Assembly (NCBI GenBank): GCA_964565125.1
Contig: CAZMCX010000024.1
Location: 1-10,124, forward strand
Direction: 5' to 3'
DNA length: 10,124 bases
Source: an uncultured archaeon
GTDB taxonomy: Archaea; Iainarchaeota; Iainarchaeia; Iainarchaeales; 0-14-0-20-30-16
Each line of letters starts with the position of its first letter. Positions within the stretch are counted from its first letter, which is position 1. Both the position numbers and the translations under genes were made by a program. Below, piece by piece: positions 2,396 through 9,808 of the stretch. The notes under the pieces were generated by a model that had not been told where the DNA came from, made no database searches, and saw only the letters and a program-made list of their open reading frames with translations.

Positions 2396-2701
2396 ATGAA
2401 CGAAAGTTTCATAGAATACGCCCAAAAATATCCTAAACAGTATGCTATCGCTAGTTCAGAGTTATGTATAAAACTGCTTGAAAAGCTGTCAAAATCTGGC
2501 GCAACTATAGACGAAATAAAAAAATTGAACGAGTTTCATATGGTTGAATTAATGGATTTAAAACTACTGCTTAACATGCTCGTAGGCATAAAACTACTTG
2601 CTGTAGAAGACATTGGACCCAAGGAAATATATTACTCTGGGGATTTTATTAACGAATTTTTGAAAGAATACTATAAAACAAAAAAAAACTATGACATATA
2701 G
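2396..2701 (+). CDS. Hypothetical small protein (101 aa), possibly winged-helix-like
   Basis: The ATG at 2396 lies about 26 nt downstream of TTTTATATATAT (2364-2375), so it is probably leaderless. The TTG at 2351 proposed by the ORF track would include the promoter. The helical pattern CIKLLEKLSKSGATIDEIKK...LLLNMLVGIKLL is compatible with wHTH, but I recognise no family. Confidence 0.55.
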   Translation: MNESFIEYAQKYPKQYAIASSELCIKLLEKLSKSGATIDEIKKLNEFHMVELMDLKLLLNMLVGIKLLAVEDIGPKEIYYSGDFINEFLKEYYKTKKNYDI

Positions 2702-2711
2702 TGGCTTATTT

Positions 2712-3743
2712 TTACAACGAATAAAATAAGTTTAGTATTATTCCGCCAAGCCCATCAAGCATTTTTCCCGCATCATTCTTAGAATCCATTAAATGTATCT
2801 TTTTACCCTGACTTGAAAGAGCAACAAAATGTGGCTTAAGGATTATATAATTTTCATTAAAATAACTTGTAGAAACTACTAATTCTTCAACTGCAGCCAT
2901 TTGATTTTCTAAAACATTTTGGACTTCTTTGGGGCCATAAATAATATTTCTTTTGCCTTGGCTTATTTTGTATAAAGAGGTATTTATTTTTTCAATGTCT
3001 TTAGTTATTTTAAACTCATTAAGTGTTTTTGACAAAGAATTGCTTTTTATCAACTCTAATATTCCGCTTATCCCCACACCATTCAAGTTAACCATAATTG
3101 TTTTTATTTTTACATTTTTTTCTTTTAGATAAACTCCAAGTTTGTCTTTATCAAAGCCAGGGCCTGCCAAAATCAATAGTTCTGGTTTTGTGTTTGATAT
3201 GCTCTCAAAAATGTCTTTAAAATAGCTTTTATCTTCTTCCACAACATATCTTTTTCCCTTGCTTTTTGAATTTATTTTTGCAATTATTTTGTAATTACCG
3301 TAATTAATCTCAGCAACTATTGCTACTTCGTCGTCTAAAACTACTGAAAGTATTTTTGGATTTACAGCATATTTTTTTGCAGATTCTATTAATTCTAATT
3401 CATAGCCCAACAACACCTTATACAAAGTTACTGTGTCGCCGAAACCGATATCTAAGGTATGAAAAGAGCCGATATCAACATATTCTGCAGGGTGCCCTTC
3501 AATGATAACCCCAGTAAATTTAAGTCGGTCTGTTTGAGTATCAAATTCCTTTTTTTCTATTTTTATTTTTACATTTACTGTTTTCTTCTCGCTGTCTTTA
3601 GAACCTTCAACTCTAAAACGCCGTGTAGTTTTCCCATAAATCAATTCATTTTCGTGCGTTATATTATTTAGAACCCAAAGGTCATCTAAATTTTCAGGGG
3701 TGATTATCACATTCTGTTCTTTTTTATGTATAGTATACTTCAT
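2712..3743 (-). CDS. pelA: Pelota (aPelota/Dom34), ribosome rescue factor
   Basis: 343 aa. The N-terminus ...ITPENLDDLWVLNNI...GKTTRRFRV matches the conserved Pelota motif (pE..DDLW.L.N.I ... T.R), and the size and eRF1-like domain layout fit. Confidence 0.85.
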   Translation of the reverse strand: MKYTIHKKEQNVIITPENLDDLWVLNNITHENELIYGKTTRRFRVEGSKDSEKKTVNVKIKIEKKEFDTQTDRLKFTGVIIEGHPAEYVDIGSFHTLDIGFGDTVTLYKVLLGYELELIESAKKYAVNPKILSVVLDDEVAIVAEINYGNYKIIAKINSKSKGKRYVVEEDKSYFKDIFESISNTKPELLILAGPGFDKDKLGVYLKEKNVKIKTIMVNLNGVGISGILELIKSNSLSKTLNEFKITKDIEKINTSLYKISQGKRNIIYGPKEVQNVLENQMAAVEELVVSTSYFNENYIILKPHFVALSSQGKKIHLMDSKNDAGKMLDGLGGIILNLFYSL

Positions 3744-3763
3744 AACATAAAGATGATGAGATT

Positions 3764-3776
3764 CATTTTTAACAAT
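3764..3776. promoter_or_regulatory. Shared TATA-like element of a putative bidirectional leaderless promoter
   Basis: In the 52-bp intergenic region, TTTTTAA (3766-3772) is centred at ~3769. That is 26 nt from the pelota start (3743, minus strand) and 27 nt from the ABCE1 ATG (3796). Neither start has an SD-like GGTGA. Confidence 0.4.
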
Positions 3777-3795
3777 ATCCTTGGTTGAAATAAAT

Positions 3796-5544
3796 ATGCA
3801 AAAGAAAAGAATTGCTATAATTGACTATAAAAAATGTAAAAAAGAGGAGTGTGGATTTGCCTGTTACAACATCTGTCCAGTTATAAAAATGAACAAAGAA
3901 GCAATAGTCTATAATGAACTGGAAAAAAAGGTTCAAATTTCCGAAGAACTTTGTACTGGCTGCGGGATTTGCCCAAAGAAATGCCCTTTTGGAGCAATAA
4001 CAATAATTAATTTATCTTTAGATTTAAGTGAGCCCATACATCAATATGGAAAAAATCGTTTCAGATTATTTAGATTACCCACAATAAGGGCTGGTAATGC
4101 AGTTGGCTTAATTGGAAAAAACGGGATTGGAAAATCAACCATACTTAATATTTATTCAGGAGACATAATACCAAATCAAGGTAATTATGAAAAACCAGGT
4201 AATTACGAAGAAATAATAAATTATTTTAAAGGCAAAGAATTACAAGAAACGTTTATAAATTTAAAAAATGGGAAAACAAAAGTTTCGTACAAACCACAAA
4301 ACATAAAGGCCATAAAAGATAATTTCAAAGGCAAAGTAATAGACTTACTAAAAAAAGTTGATGAACGTAAAGAGCTTAACAAAATAATTGACCTATTAAA
4401 AATGGATAATATAATGAACAAAGAGATATCAACTCTTTCTGGTGGAGAACTCCAAAAAGTTGCAATAGCCGCAACAATTATAAAAAAGGCAAACCTTTAT
4501 TTTTATGATGAGCCATCGTCATTTTTAGACATAAAACAGAGATTTGTATTTGCAAAATTGATAGAAGATTATAAAGATACAAACTTAATTGTAGAGCACG
4601 ACTTGGCATTGGTTGACTACTTGTGTGATTATTTGCATATTTTATTTGGTAAAGCACACGCATATGGTGTTGTTTCTAATACAAAGACAACAAATACAGC
4701 AATAAATGAGTTTTTAGATGGTTTCATACCAGATGAAAACTTGAGATTCAGAGATTATGAAATAAACTTTTACTATAGGGGTGAGCAAGCAAAAAAAACT
4801 AATTTATTTTTTAATTATCCACAAATGTGTAAAACATTTAAAGACTTTAAACTTGATGTTGATGATGGATCTTTAAATGAAGGCGAAATTATTGGGATTG
4901 TCGGAGAAAACGGAATTGGAAAAACAACTTTTGTAAAACTACTTGCGGGCGTTGAAAAAGAGGATAATGAAATAAATGTTTTCAATAAACGAATGTCATA
5001 CAAACCACAAGATTTTGATGGTGAACATGTAAAAGTAAGGGAATTTTTAAAGGGCGTAAATCAAGAGATACTTATGTCTGAACTTTGGTTTAAGCTAAAA
5101 ATAAATGAGATTGAAGATTTATATTTGGATGAATTAAACATGGGGACTTTGCAAAAAATTATGATTGCAAAAACCCTTACAACTGACGCAGAAATTTATT
5201 TACTAGATGAGCCTTCTGCTTTTTTAGATGTTGAAGAAAGAATTAATATTGCAAAAATAATTCAATCTATTATTGCAAAAAGAAAAAAGGTCGCTTTTGT
5301 TGTTGATCACGATATACTTTTTGTTGATTTTGTTTCAGACAAAATAATTGTATTTGATGGAAAGCCCGGCATAGAGGGGTTTTGTACAAAACCAAAAGAT
5401 AAAAAAAGAGGTATGAACCAATTTTTAAAAATACTCGATGTAACTTACAGAAAAGATTTAAAGTCCGGAAGGCCGCGAGTAAATAAATTAAATTCTACGA
5501 AAGACAAAGAACAAAAAGCAGATGGTAATTACTATGTTTACTAG
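3796..5544 (+). CDS. ABCE1: ABCE1 (RNase L inhibitor homolog), ribosome-recycling ATPase
   Basis: The N-terminus has two ferredoxin-type cysteine clusters (CKKEECGFACYNICPV; CTGCGICPKKCPFGA). Two ABC cassettes follow: Walker A GLIGKNGIGKST and GIVGENGIGKTT, signature LSGGELQ, and Walker B YFYDEPS and YLLDEPS. The ATG at 3796 is preferred over the track's TTG at 3781. Confidence 0.9.
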   Translation: MQKKRIAIIDYKKCKKEECGFACYNICPVIKMNKEAIVYNELEKKVQISEELCTGCGICPKKCPFGAITIINLSLDLSEPIHQYGKNRFRLFRLPTIRAGNAVGLIGKNGIGKSTILNIYSGDIIPNQGNYEKPGNYEEIINYFKGKELQETFINLKNGKTKVSYKPQNIKAIKDNFKGKVIDLLKKVDERKELNKIIDLLKMDNIMNKEISTLSGGELQKVAIAATIIKKANLYFYDEPSSFLDIKQRFVFAKLIEDYKDTNLIVEHDLALVDYLCDYLHILFGKAHAYGVVSNTKTTNTAINEFLDGFIPDENLRFRDYEINFYYRGEQAKKTNLFFNYPQMCKTFKDFKLDVDDGSLNEGEIIGIVGENGIGKTTFVKLLAGVEKEDNEINVFNKRMSYKPQDFDGEHVKVREFLKGVNQEILMSELWFKLKINEIEDLYLDELNMGTLQKIMIAKTLTTDAEIYLLDEPSAFLDVEERINIAKIIQSIIAKRKKVAFVVDHDILFVDFVSDKIIVFDGKPGIEGFCTKPKDKKRGMNQFLKILDVTYRKDLKSGRPRVNKLNSTKDKEQKADGNYYVY

Positions 5545-5564
5545 TTATGTATAAGCGCACATCG

Positions 5565-5574
5565 CTTTTTAAGA
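5565..5574 (+). promoter_or_regulatory. TATA-like element for tfe (leaderless spacing)
   Basis: CTTTTTAAGA is centred ~26 nt upstream of the ATG at 5596, and no SD motif lies in between. Confidence 0.4.
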
Positions 5575-5595
5575 AAAATCGCACTCATCAGTATT

Positions 5596-6141
5596 ATGGC
5601 TACAGATATTATTAATCTAAATAGCATTCAAAAATATTTAGAAAATGTAGATTGTGCTGCTTATAAGCTTGTTTCTATTTGGTATAAAAACAAAGAAAAT
5701 ACTTCCGACGAATTTTTTACACAACACCTTGAATGTAAAATAACTGTTGTAAGGTCAATTTTAAATAAGTTACATTATTATGGAATAGTAAATTATGATA
5801 AAATAAAAAATGAAAATTCTGGCTGGTTTACATTTAAGTGGCATCTGGACTATAATAAACTTTCAAAACTTGTTTTTTTAAATAATCTGGATAAACTAGA
5901 AAAACTAAATGCAAAAGAAAAATATTATGGCGAATATCAAATGTTTGTTTGTAAAAACAGTTGCAACGACTTTCCTTTTGAAGTTGCTGCAGAATATAAT
6001 TTTAATTGTCCTATGTGTAATGAAACTTTAAAACATATTGATTATGTAGAAAAGCACAAGGAACTTCAAGCCCAGATTAAGATTATCGAAGAAGAAAATG
6101 TAATTTTGTCCTTATTTTTAAAGGAAAACAATAAAAAGTAA
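5596..6141 (+). CDS. tfe: Transcription factor E (TFE-alpha / TFIIE-alpha homolog)
   Basis: 181 aa. An N-terminal winged-helix-like segment (...ITVVRSILNKLHYYGIVNY...WFTFKW) is followed by a zinc-ribbon-like CKNSC...x18...CPMC, the layout of archaeal TFE. Confidence 0.7.
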   Translation: MATDIINLNSIQKYLENVDCAAYKLVSIWYKNKENTSDEFFTQHLECKITVVRSILNKLHYYGIVNYDKIKNENSGWFTFKWHLDYNKLSKLVFLNNLDKLEKLNAKEKYYGEYQMFVCKNSCNDFPFEVAAEYNFNCPMCNETLKHIDYVEKHKELQAQIKIIEEENVILSLFLKENNKK

Positions 6142-6164
6142 TATCATACTATCATTAAGTAGTA

Positions 6165-6240
6165 TAGCGGGGTAGGGCAGCCTGGAGTGCCCGCTGGGCT
6201 CATAACCCGGAGGTCGTTGGTTCAAATCCAACTCCCGCTA
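6165..6240 (+). tRNA. tRNA-iMet: tRNA-Met (anticodon CAT), initiator type; CCA not encoded
   Basis: Hand-folded cloverleaf: acceptor AGCGGGG/TCCCGCT, D arm GGGC-AGCCCTGGAGT-GCCC, anticodon arm CTGGG-CTCATAA-CCCGG, variable AGGTC, T arm GTTGG-TTCAAAT-CCAAC, discriminator A. The A1:U72 pair and the three G:C pairs closing the anticodon stem are hallmarks of archaeal initiator tRNA. An Ile2 (modified CAU) identity is less likely. Confidence 0.85.
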
Positions 6241-6280
6241 TCTTGTTCTAAGCTAACAAATTAACTATTGTTGTCAGAAG

Positions 6281-6315
6281 GTAATTATCGTAATTACGGT
6301 AATTACTGTAATTAC
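6281..6315. repeat. Iteron cluster 1: four head-to-tail GTAATTA[C/T] palindromic sites at an exact 9-bp period
   Basis: Sites start at 6281 (GTAATTAT), 6290, 6299 and 6308 (GTAATTAC). GTAATTAC equals its own reverse complement. Confidence 0.9.
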
Positions 6316-6465
6316 ACGCTAGATCTTTATAAAAAATTGCCGTTTATAATCAATAAAAAACACAAATTATTGGACAAACTGCTTTGGTTTGATTTATTTA
6401 GACATCGTTGGCGTTTTATGACAAAATATACTGGCTATTCTGTTTATTTGTTCACAAAATGAACT

Positions 6466-6473
6466 GTAATTAC
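6466..6473. promoter_or_regulatory. Isolated GTAATTAC site between the two clusters
   Basis: Exact octamer within ctGTAATTACcc. Confidence 0.6.
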
Positions 6474-6547
6474 CCTTGACAGTTAGTATGTTTAAGATCG
6501 TTTGTGGTCTGTTTTGTTATTTTTTGCTCTGTTTTTTATCTGTTTTG

Positions 6548-6646
6548 GTAATTACGGTAATTATTGTAGTTATAGGCGGTAATTACGGGTAATTACCGTA
6601 ATTATTATAAATACTAGTATGTAATTATTGTAATAAAGGTAATTAC
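6548..6646. repeat. Iteron cluster 2: nine GTAATTAC-type sites overlapping the putative promoter and 5' region of the 6659 gene
   Basis: Site starts: 6548, 6557, 6566 (degenerate GTAGTTAT), 6579, 6589, 6598, 6621, 6630 (degenerate GTAATAAA) and 6639. Spacing within sub-blocks is 9-10 bp. TTATAAATA (~6604-6612) and the perfect palindrome ATACTAGTAT (6611-6620) lie between sub-blocks. Confidence 0.9.
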
Positions 6647-6658
6647 CAAGTGATAGAA

Positions 6659-7156
6659 ATGGGGCTGTTTGATAAAATAAAAAGTTTATTCTTAAAGAAA
6701 GTAGGAAAAAAAAACAAAGAACCCGAAGTAAATGAAAAAAAAGAGCTAAAAAAACCTGAAAAGTTTGAAATCAAAGAAGAAAGGGTAACAGAACCAAAGA
6801 AAAGTATACATAACACCCCAGAAGAACTAGAAGAAGTAGTTGTAGATGATTTATGGAACTATATTGACCCTATGAAAAATACCCAAGCTTATCACATAAT
6901 AAGTGTTGTTGGCTTCGAAGAATGGGTAGATATGCAAACAATAAAAGATAGGGTAAAACAGATGTTTTTTATAGAATATAAAAACGAAAAAAGTCTTTAT
7001 CCTTATATAAAAACTTTAGTAGACATTGGGTTATTAGAAACTAACGCCGTAGGCGGAAAGAGGCAATGGAAAAAAAGAGAGATCCTTATAAACATTAAAA
7101 AGGAAAAAGCTATGTTAACAACAAAAATAAAAACAGGTTTAAAATTAACTAAATAA
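6659..7156 (+). CDS. Orphan protein: N-terminal amphipathic helix, K/E-rich linker, C-terminal winged-helix-like domain
   Basis: The ATG at 6659 is preceded by AAGTGAT + 4 nt, the same GTGAT-N4-ATG register as the starts at 8482 and 9808. The N-terminus MGLFDKIKSLFLKKV resembles membrane-targeting amphipathic helices. Residues ~15-60 are low-complexity and K/E/P-rich. The C-terminus ...MQTIKDRV...SLYPYIKTLVDIGLLETNAVGGKRQWKK reads as helix-turn-helix plus wing. Confidence 0.6.
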   Translation: MGLFDKIKSLFLKKVGKKNKEPEVNEKKELKKPEKFEIKEERVTEPKKSIHNTPEELEEVVVDDLWNYIDPMKNTQAYHIISVVGFEEWVDMQTIKDRVKQMFFIEYKNEKSLYPYIKTLVDIGLLETNAVGGKRQWKKREILINIKKEKAMLTTKIKTGLKLTK

Positions 7157-7170
7157 CTGGTTTTTTGCTT

Positions 7171-7758
7171 TTACCCTTTATATTTTACATAAAAGCCTAC
7201 TAATTTATCAAATTTCTTAACCAACCCGCTTCTTTTTACGGCGGCACCATACCAACTTCCGTTTTTTATAAAGTTGATTATGTTTTCATATTGTCTTAAA
7301 AATATTTTATCTATGTGTTTTCCAAGTGATAGTTCTTCTAAAAGATCAATAAGCAACCGGTAATTACCCTGACTATCAATAACATATGTGTTTCTTATTT
7401 GGTTTTCCACTGCTTTGGTTATTTTTACTTCGTCCATAGAAACATCCACTACGCTATAACTTGCTGTCCAATTACCTTTAGATCGCCAATTATGTGCTGG
7501 ATTTTTACCAGTTTTAAAAAAATTAATTAAATAAGAAAATCCATCTTTAGTTACTATAATTTCGTTTTTGCCTTCTTTTATGTAAGAAAATTTGCTTAAA
7601 ACTCCTGGTCTATGATAAACATATTTTTTTCCAGTTTGCTTACAAACTACTTGGGTGTAGCCATATATTGCTCTAAATAGCTTTTGGTAAAGATAGGATG
7701 AATGTTTTACTTCATCTAATACTTTTATTTTATATCTTACTAAAAAAGCATCTACCAT
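7171..7758 (-). CDS. Orphan protein (195 aa), no family recognised
   Basis: The ORF is open from GTG at 7767, but the ATG at 7758 has GGGTG upstream in the usual register. It is convergent with the 6659 gene across a 14-bp gap. The N-terminus (MVDAFLVRYKI...SYLYQKLFRAIYGYTQ...YVYHRPGVL) has a beta-alpha-beta-beta pattern that could be a ferredoxin-like fold. That reading is speculative. Confidence 0.5.
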   Translation of the reverse strand: MVDAFLVRYKIKVLDEVKHSSYLYQKLFRAIYGYTQVVCKQTGKKYVYHRPGVLSKFSYIKEGKNEIIVTKDGFSYLINFFKTGKNPAHNWRSKGNWTASYSVVDVSMDEVKITKAVENQIRNTYVIDSQGNYRLLIDLLEELSLGKHIDKIFLRQYENIINFIKNGSWYGAAVKRSGLVKKFDKLVGFYVKYKG

Positions 7759-7886
7759 TAGATACACCCTATAGTTCCACTATTACCATTATTAATATAT
7801 TTTTTTAGGTTATGTAGATTATAGAAATAATAAAGTTTATATTTCAATCTTTATTTTTTGAATAAATAGACAAAAATTAGAAGTTA

Positions 7887-7907
7887 AGGTAAAATTAACT
7901 TTTACCT
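7887..7907 (-). terminator. Stem-loop overlapping the stop codon of the PRC-barrel gene
   Basis: AGGTAAAA-ttaac-TTTTACCT is a perfect 8-bp stem, followed on the minus strand by T-rich sequence. Its function is not demonstrated. Confidence 0.3.
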
Positions 7908-8216
7908 ATAACTTATTAATGCACCAGCCTTTATGTTAGGCCTTTTTTTATTATCATCTGAACTAGAATCATCAATTTTTCTATTTTTTGAAGCAACTAT
8001 GATAATGTCTTTAACTGCTAAAACGTTCTTATAAGGTATACTTTTCTCAGTTATTATCTTCTTTGCTTGTTGTTTTGTTTTTACTTTTAAAGGTTCTGTA
8101 GTTATAGTTTCTAGTTTACCTGTCTCTAAATTTACAACTATATCGTACACTTTGCCTTTATAGTCTCCGATGTCTGTATAGATGTCTCTGCCGAATAGTT
8201 CGGATAGTCTTAACAT
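7902..8216 (-). CDS. PRC-barrel domain protein
   Basis: The 104-aa product has the N-terminus LSELFGRDIYTDIGDYKGKVYDIVVNLETGKLETI, matching the PRC-barrel pattern (l.G..V....G..lG.v.D+.+d..tg.+). A strong SD, GGAGGG, lies 6 nt upstream of the ATG at 8216. The C-terminal tail is disordered and S/D/K-rich. Confidence 0.75.
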   Translation of the reverse strand: MLRLSELFGRDIYTDIGDYKGKVYDIVVNLETGKLETITTEPLKVKTKQQAKKIITEKSIPYKNVLAVKDIIIVASKNRKIDDSSSDDNKKRPNIKAGALISYR

Positions 8217-8481
8217 TTTAATCCCTCCAATATAATTAATTTGTTAAATCATTAAAGGAATATTTCCTTTACATATTATAGAAAATAATACTCATATATA
8301 TAGTTTTCGATTAGAAAGCCCCTAAACTCAAAAATATTCTTTTAATTTTTAAAGTGAATACTGGAACCATGGAGGGCCCTCTTGCACAGCTTTTTCAAGA
8401 CATAAGGAGAAACATTTAAATATAACCTGAACTTTAATTTAATTGTTATAATTAAAATATAGGAACAAGAGGGTGATGTTA

Positions 8482-8757
8482 ATGTATAAGTACACAATAG
8501 CTAAACAATTGGCTTCAAAGAGAGTAATAACAGGAAGAGGAGAAGAAGTAGGTAAATTGATAGATGTTTTGGTCAATGAACTAACTGGGGATGTAGAATA
8601 CCTATTAGTTGAAATAGACAGCCAGTCGAAATTGGTAAAAAGCCTTAACTTAAACACAGGAGACAGAATCATAAAAATACCATATGCAGCAGTTAGTGCA
8701 GTAAGTGATGTATTTATAGTAGATGAAAAGCAAATTACTGCTGAAGCTGAGGAATAG
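8482..8757 (+). CDS. PRC-barrel domain protein (second paralog)
   Basis: ...LASKRVITGRGEEVGKLIDVLVNELTGDVEYLLVEID... is a PRC-barrel signature. GGGTGAT + 4 nt precedes the ATG at 8482. The in-frame GTG at 8473 and ATG at 8476 fall inside the SD and are less likely starts. Confidence 0.75.
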   Translation: MYKYTIAKQLASKRVITGRGEEVGKLIDVLVNELTGDVEYLLVEIDSQSKLVKSLNLNTGDRIIKIPYAAVSAVSDVFIVDEKQITAEAEE

Positions 8758-9808
8758 AAAATATAATTTTTTTATTCTTCATATCTATTTTTATAATATT
8801 TTGTAAAAGAGGGTAATTTTTACCCTTAGTTTTTAATATTTTTAGTATTTGATCAGGTTTATTTCCTTTTTCTAATGCTTGTAGTATAGTTAGTCTAAGC
8901 TCTTCTAAAAAATCATAGTTTGCTTCAATCCATTTTGCCTTTTCACTACCTTCTTTTATATTTTGTTTAAAATCCTCTAACTTTAAGTCCATTTTTTTAA
9001 TAGTTATTTCAAGTTCCAAAGATTTTTTGTTGACCCCCTTTTTTTCTAAAACAATACTATCTAAGGAGTTAATGTATTTGTCTATAATATCATTAAAACT
9101 CGTTTTTATAACTTCTAAATTATCTACTTTTACATTAAAATATTCTAATTTTTTATTTTTTAGAAGAATACAATTATCCATAATTATTGGACTATTATAG
9201 ATTTTTTTTATTTTTTTTGTAATATTGTTTAAATCCGGGGCTTCTTTTGCCAAATGTTCAACAAGAGAAGGCGGAACATTAAGCTTTGAAATTATTTCAG
9301 AAATACTACAAAAGTTAAAGTTGGTTATTTTTGCAGGATTTTCTTTATTATTTGATGGAAAAACGTATTCTTTATTTGTGCCTATTTCTCTGTCCGCCCA
9401 TTTTTCTCTTATTTGGCTCGCAATTATTTTATAATTTTTATTTGTTAAAATTATATTATTATGTGAAAATAATTCAAATATTAAAAAGTTATTTCTTGTT
9501 TCAAAAACAATTACTTTTTCAAAATTCTTTTGTTCTATTTTTAAAATTTTTTCATTCCCCAATTGTTTTTCAAGATTTTTACAAAAACCAGTTTTTTCAC
9601 TGGTTTTGTAATTGTATTTTGTTAAAAATAAGAATCCGTTATAAACAATTAAATCGCGATTTGTATCTTTAGATTTTATTTTTATTTTTAAAGCATTTTC
9701 ATTTTTTTCTAAAGGTTGTATTTTTTGAATATACGCATTTGTTAATGTGTTATCAAGATTTCTTTCAAAGTATTTTACATTTAAATTGTTAAGTAGAATT
9801 TTTTCCAT
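8735..9808 (-). CDS. NFACT-N (FbpA/Rqc2/RqcH-like) protein, short form lacking the C-terminal NFACT-R region
   Basis: 357 aa. The pattern ...GFCKNLEKQLGNEKILKIEQKNFEKVIVFETRNNFLIFELFSHNNIILTNKNYKIIAS...REIGTNKEYVFP matches the NFACT-N core (F...LRK.L.g..I..I.Q...DRiv.f.f.....LI.ELf..gNiIL.d....I......R.i..g..Y..P). An HhH-like segment (ISKLNVPPSLVEHLAKEA) and a coiled-coil-like K/E-rich segment follow. GGGTGAT + 4 nt precedes the ATG at 9808. Confidence 0.7.
   Translation of the reverse strand: MEKILLNNLNVKYFERNLDNTLTNAYIQKIQPLEKNENALKIKIKSKDTNRDLIVYNGFLFLTKYNYKTSEKTGFCKNLEKQLGNEKILKIEQKNFEKVIVFETRNNFLIFELFSHNNIILTNKNYKIIASQIREKWADREIGTNKEYVFPSNNKENPAKITNFNFCSISEIISKLNVPPSLVEHLAKEAPDLNNITKKIKKIYNSPIIMDNCILLKNKKLEYFNVKVDNLEVIKTSFNDIIDKYINSLDSIVLEKKGVNKKSLELEITIKKMDLKLEDFKQNIKEGSEKAKWIEANYDFLEELRLTILQALEKGNKPDQILKILKTKGKNYPLLQNIIKIDMKNKKIIFSIPQLQQ

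Follow-up and report, generated by a model that had tools for sequence, protein, structure and literature searches.

The subject of this study is a gene of an uncultured archaeon that encodes a small protein with an amphipathic N-terminus, a disordered linker and a C-terminal winged-helix (winged helix-turn-helix, wHTH) domain, and whose promoter carries copies of the palindrome GTAATTAC. It lies at nt 6659–7156 of contig CAZMCX010000024.1 (assembly GCA_964565125.1), the 10.1 kb stretch analysed here and referred to below as the window. The protein belongs to an unannotated family that is restricted to the Iainarchaeota (Diapherotrites, DPANN). Four properties of the family are established in the current study, namely the fold of the DNA-binding domain, the conservation of the helix pattern at the N-terminus, the co-occurrence of gene and motif, and the position of the sites within the promoter. 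Taken as a whole, they are perhaps best explained by a self-repressing, operator-binding protein that would be held at the membrane in a manner resembling Noc or RicO, a reading that is put forward tentatively and with somewhat less than even confidence.

A preliminary description of this DNA, made from the letters of the sequence, regarded the protein as an orphan. This did not survive database searches, as homologs fall into 111 clusters at 90% identity (all unnamed), 148 relatives of the gene were found among the species genomes of GTDB, and a profile search over 1.84 billion representative proteins returned 40 clusters (50% identity), all of them strong matches or fragments. No tail of distant matches was seen in the last of these searches, i.e. 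there were no remote relatives beyond the family. The relatives come nearly all from metagenome-assembled genomes (MAGs) of Iainarchaeota (Diapherotrites). Scans of Pfam (E-values up to 0.1) and NCBIfam gave no match to the protein, sequence and profile searches of PDB returned insignificant bromodomain matches only (E above 0.07), and a scan of viral contigs detected no homolog, so that nothing ties the gene to a mobile element. What is new here is an unannotated family that marks its phylum. Three contigs labelled Candidatus Falkowbacteria (a bacterium of the candidate phyla radiation, CPR), Thaumarchaeota and Micrarchaeota (L014, L018 and L009, respectively) share the block of genes for TFE, initiator tRNA-Met, wHTH protein, ORF198 and PRC-barrel protein that is described below, and are probably mis-binned or mis-labelled Iainarchaeota contigs. 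Comparisons of motifs and helices were made over 76 non-redundant loci, with protein identities of 37–87% and G+C contents of 21–51%, and invariant residues were taken from an alignment of 46 sequences.

An exact copy of GTAATTAC is present within 150 bp upstream of the start codon in 74 of the 76 loci, while the two remaining loci have one-mismatch sites or runs of GTAATGA at the same places. By the preliminary description, its proposal of a site-specific DNA-binding protein would have fallen if homologs never occurred together with this motif; across the family they do so, strongly. The motif is the top-ranked 8-mer upstream of the gene, where its density (11.1 per kb) is 82-fold higher than in the other 554 kb of these loci (0.135 per kb), and in two loci of 20 kb the sole exact copy is found at −25 or −29 of the gene. 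The wider operator consensus reads RGTAATTACY, and enrichment was seen for another palindrome as well, TTAC(C/G)GTAA. Most lineages have between one and three GTAATTAC sites.

The layout of the promoter, compared in 39 loci, places sites both upstream of a TATA-like element and between this element and the start codon; in most loci the TATA-like element can be made out as a distinct sequence flanked by sites. In the window it is TTATAAATA (nt 6605–6613), which lies between the sites at 6589–6605 and those at 6621–6646. Characterised archaeal repressors act at sites around the TATA box and the start, and the positions seen here fit the simpler of the options given in the preliminary description, that the protein autoregulates. 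Distances from site to site cluster at 10, 20, 31, 41, 51 and 82 bp (Rayleigh R = 0.74 at 10.4 bp), a phased spacing that puts the sites on one face of the DNA and suggests cooperative binding there. The presumed recognition helix of the protein is invariant while the G+C content of the genomes spans 21–51%, and since the operator at the gene's own promoter is equally invariant, direct autoregulation is the best reading of the two together. It is probable, judging from these sequence comparisons, that the winged-helix protein binds the motif and autoregulates; that it is this protein, and not another, which binds GTAATTAC is something we infer from the same comparisons.

Some copies of the motif lie elsewhere. 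In the window, exact copies at nt 4199–4206, 5525–5532 and 7360–7367 fall inside the genes for ABCE1 and ORF198, where they encode Gly-Asn-Tyr (GGT AAT TAC). All three positions are kept in two close relatives (L007 and L008), that at 5525 also in L003, and they are probably coding-driven and were not counted as operators. A further intragenic copy (nt 3291–3298) is found in the gene for Pelota. Secondary pairs or triplets of GTAATTAC, spaced about 19–21 bp apart, occur in L071 (nt 1793–1826 and 5072–5131), L082, L083, L056 and L085. One such set is situated between the genes for tRNA-Lys(CTT) and tRNA-Lys(TTT), and another behind the ORF198 homolog, between convergent gene ends, which is not a promoter position.

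A helix-turn-helix-plus-wing pattern had been noticed in the C-terminal part of the protein, and it was borne out both by an AlphaFold2 model computed with the family alignment and by a Foldseek search with that model. Residues ~60–150 are predicted with a pLDDT (predicted local distance difference test) above 90, in the order strand 60–64, helix 65–68, helix 76–83, helix 92–103, helix 114–122, hairpin 126–131/134–139, strand 143–147 and helix 148–160. Helices 76–83, 92–103 and 114–122 form H1, H2 and H3 of the wHTH core, and are followed by the wing, the tip and second strand of which correspond to GGKRQWKK (residues 132–139). The domain does not end with this segment, as had been supposed, since the strand 143–147 and the C-terminal helix 148–160 come after it. 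The conserved core comprises ~85 residues, downstream of the unalignable linker and the patterned N-terminus, and its invariant positions are W66, Q76, A77, H79, M92, Y107, S112–Y116, K118, T119, D122 and W137. In a winged helix the third helix is usually the one that reads the DNA, and the invariant segment SLYPYIKTLVD, made up of the end of the preceding loop and H3, is presumed from the model to contain the DNA-reading helix of this family.

The top 50 matches of the model in PDB are essentially all wHTH DNA-binding proteins, and include the DNA-binding domains of Fur, Zur and PerR, BlaI/MecI, STIV F93, Sso10a, RosR, TubR, histone H1 and PadR; matches in the library of viral structures (BFVD) are generic wHTH proteins. 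On this basis the predicted fold is almost certainly a winged helix. The Foldseek probabilities are ~1.0 with E-values of only 2e-3 to 1.5e-2, too weak for any particular wHTH family to be indicated. The PadR family (PF03551) had been suspected from the motif SLYPY..L..GL, and was rejected as there was no Pfam match and the hhalign comparison of the family profile with a PadR protein of L207 gave a probability of 1.3%. Membership in the Noc/ParB family was likewise rejected, the protein being of 165 residues with a single wHTH and having no ParB domain nor any other Pfam or NCBIfam domain, and so was membership in SepF (PF04472), for which there was no Pfam match, the C-terminal domain here being a wHTH. 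A Pfam scan of the protein revealed neither a MinD nor an FtsA domain.

The preliminary description also proposed that the N-terminus resembles an amphipathic membrane-targeting sequence, with hydrophobic residues and lysines on opposite faces. As a feature of the family this stood up well. A pattern of hydrophobic residues at i, i+1, i+4, i+7 and i+8 (or a variant with i+4/i+5) within the first 35 residues is found in its strict form in 66 of 76 members compared to 21 of 435 control ORFs (open reading frames) of the same loci, and the ten members without the strict pattern still look amphipathic. The mean net charge of the N-terminus is +2.1. Its residues drift from member to member (e.g. MGLFDKIKSLF, MVIKRIVKALLK and MFLVDFLKKIF), such that only the hydrophobic periodicity and the positive charge are kept. 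In the protein of the window, residues 4–11 are helical at moderate confidence in the AlphaFold2 model. Drawn as a wheel (residues 2–15), L3, F4, I7, L10, F11 and V15 occupy an arc of ~140 degrees, and K6, K8 and K13 are found next to this arc or across from it, in agreement with the proposed arrangement, which fails for K14, located on the hydrophobic arc, and for L12, on the polar face. The hydrophobic moment of this N-terminus is 0.55, and that of proven membrane-targeting sequences was computed as 0.27–0.78. For the best 11-mer, the family has a median moment of 0.69 versus 0.54 in the controls. As the moment is not decisive, the pattern test was used in its place.

The low-complexity stretch rich in K, E and P that had been described behind the N-terminus is likewise present (residues 16–60, of which 62% are K, E or P). 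Residues ~17–55 are predicted to be disordered, with a pLDDT below 50, and in the family the linker is of 17–51 residues, rich in E and K, and unalignable. Judged from the sequences, the family is characterised by an amphipathic N-terminus and, behind it, an acidic/basic linker that varies between members. That the helix binds the membrane, a view that draws on this pattern and on analogy with known targeting sequences, is on balance slightly the more probable outcome.

In the window the operator is amplified. There are 12 exact copies of GTAATTAC where 0.23 are expected, a number that was reached in none of 200 shuffles, and the interval between the tRNA and the gene (nt 6243–6658) holds 12 sites with one mismatch or less in 410 bp, where the remainder of the window would lead one to expect 0.42. 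Most of the sites belong to runs of 9-bp period (nt 6281–6315, 6548–6573, 6579–6614 and 6621–6646), and the 9-bp array alternates both palindromes, GTAATTAC and TTAC-N-GTAA. The term iteron arrays, used in the preliminary description, is apt for the clade of the window and does not extend to most of its relatives, which have one to three operators; about 15 sites in two blocks are present only in the window, in L007 (87% identical protein) and in L008 (63%). Among these three, 81% of the site columns are invariant, compared to 30% of the other spacer columns and 94% of those of the tRNA, which indicates that the arrays are kept by selection. The gene does follow directly downstream of the arrays, with the final GTAATTAC (nt 6639–6646) being 13 nt ahead of the ATG. 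A GTG at nt 6650 would be a possible start by the criterion of the longest ORF, and the ATG at 6659 was chosen as homologs begin with MGLF.

Similar repeats are known from unrelated DNA. The contig L136 (GC 0.53) has seven exact GTAATTACN units with a 9-bp period at nt 5380–5441, which decay into GTAATTCT repeats and are flanked by two ORFs, one resembling an acylphosphatase and the other a short-chain dehydrogenase. A scan of metagenomes for the tandem pair, GTAATTACNGTAATTAC, retrieved at least 119 contigs, all unrelated, and the gene was on none of the matches listed.

The gene is part of a conserved block (see table for coordinates in the window). In essentially every locus, TFE-alpha (+) and tRNA-Met (+) are followed by a spacer of 230–590 bp, the winged-helix gene (+), ORF198 (−) and a PRC-barrel gene (−). 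A1:U72 and a GGG/CCC anticodon stem, both read from the sequence, mark the tRNA-Met as an initiator tRNA. In several relatives it holds an intron, and was missed by ARAGORN or mis-typed as Ser, Asn or Tyr. An Rfam search of nt 6100–7300 found the tRNA only, and no known RNA in the spacer.

Features of the window around the winged-helix gene
Feature	Position (nt)	Strand	Basis
TFE-alpha gene	5596–6141	+	Pfam PF02002, E 2.5e-8; synteny
tRNA-Met (CAT), initiator type, left border of spacer	6165–6242	+	ARAGORN; Rfam 57 bits; precedes the gene in nearly every locus
Distal operator array, GTAATTA(C/T) in four copies, 9-bp period	6281–6315	.	Conserved in L007 and L008
Lone GTAATTAC site between arrays	6466–6473	.	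Position conserved in L007
T/G-rich direct repeat, three copies, (G/T)(G/C/A)TCTGTTTT	6501–6546	+	Repeat finding
Promoter-proximal operator array, 10 sites with two mismatches or less, 9–10 bp spacing, enclosing TTATAAATA at 6605–6613	6548–6646	.	Clade-conserved site columns
Coding sequence of amphipathic-helix / linker / winged-helix protein	6659–7156	+	165 residues plus stop from ATG; 111 homolog clusters
N-terminal amphipathic helix, putative membrane-targeting sequence, residues 1–15, MGLFDKIKSLFLKKV	6659–6703	+	AlphaFold2 helix 4–11; wheel; family pattern
K/E/P-rich disordered linker, residues 16–60	6704–6838	+	62% K+E+P; pLDDT below 50; length varies in family
Winged-helix DNA-binding domain, residues 61–150	6839–7108	+	pLDDT above 90; Foldseek; invariant residues
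Presumed recognition helix and loop end, residues 112–122, SLYPYIKTLVD	6992–7024	+	S112, L113, Y114, P115, Y116, K118, T119 and D122 invariant in 46 sequences
Beta-hairpin wing, residues 126–139, GGKRQWKK at 132–139	7034–7075	+	Strands 126–131/134–139; W137 invariant; G132, G133, K139 nearly so
ORF198, convergent neighbour	7171–7767	−	Syntenic in essentially all loci; 119 homologs
PRC-barrel protein gene	7902–8216	−	Pfam PF05239, E 1e-9; after ORF198 in nearly all loci

The spacers of relatives carry a second repeat, CTCAC, in one to six copies that are always on the same strand (examples are L019, nt 3547–3910, and L079, which equals L005 nt 5557–6000). Its consensus is an A-rich tract followed by CA-CTCAC-T. 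Between −400 and −200, CTCAC has a density of 5.6 per kb, compared to ~0.3 per kb elsewhere, and CTCACT is present in 46 of 61 spacers where 5.6 are expected. Distances between consecutive copies cluster at 42, 52, 62, 73, 83, 93, 114 and 124 bp (R = 0.75 at 10.3–10.4 bp, n = 89); the loci are related and the events not independent, and the distances differ between lineages with the phase kept. This phasing points to a protein complex that is assembled on one face of the DNA. No CTCAC repeats were found in the spacer of the window, and the TCTGTTTT repeats listed in the table may, on our reading, correspond to the phased CTCAC repeats of the relatives.

In L003 (nt 2667–3683), L010 and L051, a gene for Dus (tRNA dihydrouridine synthase) is located between the array that follows the tRNA and the winged-helix gene. 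In L003 it ends at nt 3683 and the winged-helix gene starts at 3684, which suggests that the two form an operon in this clade. The idea that the 230-bp stretch between the arrays of the window is a decayed Dus gene was rejected, since tblastn detected no remnant there. The window has only a 17-nt block (nt 6360–6376, ACACAAATTATTGGACA) in common with the annotated Dus ORF, at the 5' end of the latter.

On the other side of the gene, ORF198 has 119 homologs, all annotated as hypothetical, and no match in Pfam or NCBIfam. Its AlphaFold2 model (pLDDT 92.6, predicted template modelling score 0.87) displays an alpha/beta domain plus a helical bundle for which Foldseek found no relative in PDB (best E 0.09), and it may represent an undescribed fold or family. 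The nearness of PRC-barrel genes had been called circumstantial. This underrates it as synteny, which is kept across the phylum, and remains fair as regards function, for which the link is still weak: the PRC-barrel genes have the opposite orientation and come after ORF198. PRC-barrel proteins act in haloarchaeal division, but their genes are often adjacent to translation or RNA-processing genes (10.1101/2023.03.28.534520); the winged-helix family is not mentioned in that study. In relatives the PRC-barrel gene is often followed by a Xer-like tyrosine recombinase (L005, nt 8825–9682; L071, nt 6652–7692; L206, nt 13294–14181; L207, nt 11808–12656). The window has no Xer-like recombinase there, and has a second PRC-barrel gene and RqcH instead. 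Neither orc1/cdc6 nor a partition ATPase was found within 6–10 kb on either side of the winged-helix gene.

The remainder of the window (~30% GC) has an archaeal gene set, and its nearest public relatives are MAGs called Candidatus Iainarchaeum or Diapherotrites. Besides TFE-alpha, one tRNA-Met, two PRC-barrel genes and a short RqcH/NFACT gene, it carries TYW3, Pelota and ABCE1, as well as small ORFs whose counterparts in L001 match Rpb6-type (RNA polymerase subunit) and S17e proteins in Pfam. Genes for ribosome rescue and recycling (Pelota, ABCE1 and the short RqcH/NFACT) are grouped at nt 2712–5544 and 8735–9808, and in relatives aRF1 is added to the group (L001, nt 9815–11035). The RqcH/NFACT protein has 357 residues compared to a model of 645 positions, and its ORF shares 23 nt with the 3' end of the PRC-barrel gene at nt 8473–8757. 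A small ORF at nt 2351–2701 (+; 116 residues from TTG, while the gene call at the matching position of L001 has 101) has only a sub-threshold match to IncFII_repA (E 0.004, 17 bits versus a cutoff of 22.9) and may encode another small DNA-binding protein.

How these components might work together can be sketched as follows. The C-terminal winged helix would bind RGTAATTACY and TTAC-N-GTAA around its own TATA box and start (the candidate operator sequences being RGTAATTACY and TTACNGTAA), and the bound protein would repress its own gene. The N-terminal helix, of ~14 residues on a flexible acidic/basic linker, would serve as a weak peripheral membrane anchor of the type seen in MinD, SepF or Noc, and several operator-bound copies would together hold the locus, beside the initiator tRNA gene, at the cytoplasmic membrane. 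In the clade of the window, the amplification of the operator to ~15 sites would supply more helices per complex and so a higher avidity for the membrane. We infer repression, membrane binding and tethering from the sequences and by analogy with better known proteins, and of these, tethering as the actual function is doubtful.

Several observations weigh against this scheme. Most members have one to three operators, which would make a weak tether, and classical wHTH dimers usually have targets longer than a palindrome of 8 bp. In the arrays, the 9-bp period is off the helical repeat, so that bound proteins would spiral round the DNA or take alternate sites, and the GTAATTACN microsatellite in the unrelated GC-rich contig L136 implies that slippage is able to produce such arrays. 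With a hydrophobic moment of 0.55, the N-terminus does not stand out from those of the control ORFs (median 0.54), and just 9% of the family exceed the 95th percentile of the controls. Finally, a different factor could bind the motif.

The protein could also be a cytosolic autoregulator, in which GTAATTAC is the target of the winged helix and the gene is repressed by its own product, while the N-terminal helix is a short motif for protein binding or oligomerisation. It might, for instance, bind ORF198 or a PRC-barrel protein, or serve looping between the phased operators. Cooperative repression would fully explain the site positions and their helical phasing, the hydrophobic moment is unexceptional beside the controls, and ORF198 and the PRC-barrel gene are syntenic in nearly every locus. 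The free drift of the helix residues with periodicity and charge retained is, however, typical of lipid-binding helices and atypical of specific interfaces between peptides and proteins, and the long disordered linker fits a tether. This reading is considered rather unlikely. The helix might instead bind the membrane reversibly and thereby titrate the pool of free repressor, following a logic like that of yeast Opi1 or PutA, so that expression of the gene and of a small regulon would report lipid state or membrane area, and the helix would not serve to anchor DNA. Such a switch draws on the same evidence as the membrane-held repressor preferred here (helix, linker and autoregulatory operator), and the secondary GTAATTAC pairs in L071, L082, L083, L056 and L085 hint at a small regulon. 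Yet some of the secondary clusters lie between convergent gene ends and not at promoters, the 15-site arrays of the window's clade are more than would be needed, and no signal-sensing feature was found in the protein; it is judged improbable.

It is quite improbable that another factor binds GTAATTAC, or that the motif is an unusual promoter element, with the target and function of the protein being elsewhere. Co-occurrence is no proof of binding, the AT-rich motif coincides in part with the core promoter, and in three genomes it is found just 5' of a tRNA-Lys gene. On the other hand, most loci have a separate TATA-like element between the sites, the 82-fold enrichment concerns one promoter (76 loci) and is near background at neighbouring promoters, and an invariant recognition helix together with an invariant operator over a GC range of 21–51% is the classic signature of an autoregulated factor. 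Least probable, and by our estimate very unlikely indeed, is a replicon-like or centromere-like module in which the spacer would be an origin or partition site, composed as in iteron plasmids of phased direct repeats and an inverted-repeat operator, and the winged-helix protein its initiator or centromere-binding protein. The one to six same-strand CTCAC repeats of relatives (phased at 10.3–10.4 bp), the palindromic operators at the promoter of a winged-helix gene, the presence of TubR, a centromere-binding wHTH protein, among the fold matches, and the Xer-like recombinase that is often nearby are all compatible with it. Evidence against it comes from the lack of orc1/cdc6 and of a partition ATPase in the flanking 6–10 kb, from the single small winged-helix domain, from the failure to find viral-contig homologs, and from a window spacer without CTCAC repeats. 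In a complete Diapherotrites genome, moreover, the origin maps next to cdc6 (PMC5905446). Taken with the missing cdc6 at this locus, this disfavours a replication origin in the spacer. Membership of the protein in the Rep_3 initiators was rejected too, there being no Pfam match and one winged-helix domain only.

A more far-reaching version of the membrane-held repressor, considered unlikely, is that the 230–590 bp spacer and the gene form a centromere-like module of the Iainarchaeota that anchors chromosomal DNA to the membrane. On helically phased repeats (CTCAC plus GTAATTAC in most lineages, 15 sites of GTAATTAC in the clade of the window), the winged-helix protein would form a nucleoprotein complex along one side of the DNA, whose many weak amphipathic helices would attach a particular site of the chromosome to the membrane. 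If true, no counterpart of Noc or RicO would have been described from archaea before, and a connection with the PRC-barrel (CdpB-like) division proteins encoded nearby and with the Xer recombinase is conceivable. The family bears on how archaea that use FtsZ, DPANN especially, position and segregate their chromosome relative to the envelope, and offers a small, well-defined candidate with a putative target of 8–10 bp, a confident model and a separable helix, which is directly testable though the organisms are uncultured. Even as an autoregulator only, it would be a phylum-marking family whose conserved operator ranks among the cleanest observed throughout an archaeal phylum, and its conserved gene block adds two more puzzles, namely ORF198, which lacks a recognisable fold relative, and the CTCAC repeats with their phasing.

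Among known systems, the closest parallels are found in bacteria. Noc, the nucleoid occlusion protein of Bacillus subtilis, has a conserved N-terminal amphipathic helix, a variable spacer and a DNA-binding domain, and its weak helix needs nucleoprotein assembly to reach the membrane (PMC4331003). The B. subtilis protein shares with the present family an N-terminal helix of ~10–15 residues, the variable spacer, and a DNA-binding domain that recognises a palindrome (PMC4331003, PMC8429893). It differs in being a ParB-family CTPase with a helix-turn-helix that spreads from ~70 sites scattered over the chromosome, whereas the archaeal protein has a single small winged helix, no nucleotide-binding domain, sites concentrated at its own promoter and no sequence relationship to Noc. 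The likeness is one of analogy, not homology. In RicO of Staphylococcus aureus, a DNA-binding domain and an amphipathic helix bridge DNA and membrane (bioRxiv 10.64898/2026.03.06.710092). It is similar in being a small protein with a DNA-binding domain for a specific motif and a terminal amphipathic helix, and different in that the DNA-binding domain is N-terminal and the helix C-terminal, the sites are origin-proximal, and a role in segregation has been demonstrated; the present family has the reversed domain order and no origin nearby.

The targeting sequences of MinD, FtsA, SepF and MreB resemble the N-terminus of the family in being terminal helices of 10–15 residues, with a hydrophobic face flanked by Lys/Arg, a flexible linker and a hydrophobic moment in the same range, and are carried by cytoskeletal or division proteins instead of DNA-binding domains. 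Autoregulated winged-helix regulators of archaea and viruses that consist of a single domain (RosR, Sso10a, STIV F93 / SSV1 F-93 and BlaI/MecI-like) agree with the family in fold (Foldseek probability ~1.0, target-normalised TM 0.45–0.55), small size and palindromic operators over the promoter, and in both the C-terminal helix may dimerise. These regulators have no N-terminal amphipathic helix, no long disordered linker and no sequence relationship to the family, which for its part occurs in one phylum only and has an invariant operator. Iteron Rep proteins (RepA of pPS10, RepE, pi) recall the spacers of the relatives in combining a winged helix with phased direct repeats beside an inverted-repeat operator over their own promoter. 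They have two winged-helix domains (Pfam Rep_3) and act on plasmids, while the family is encoded by a chromosomal core gene, has one such domain, and its direct repeat CTCAC is unlike the operator half-site GTAA. The literature searched held no precedent for an archaeal protein in which a peripheral membrane helix and a site-specific DNA-binding domain are combined. What is ordinary in this family is the fold and the logic of autoregulation, and what is new is the union of a terminal amphipathic helix with a site-specific DNA-binding domain in archaea, together with a strongly conserved and phased cis-architecture.

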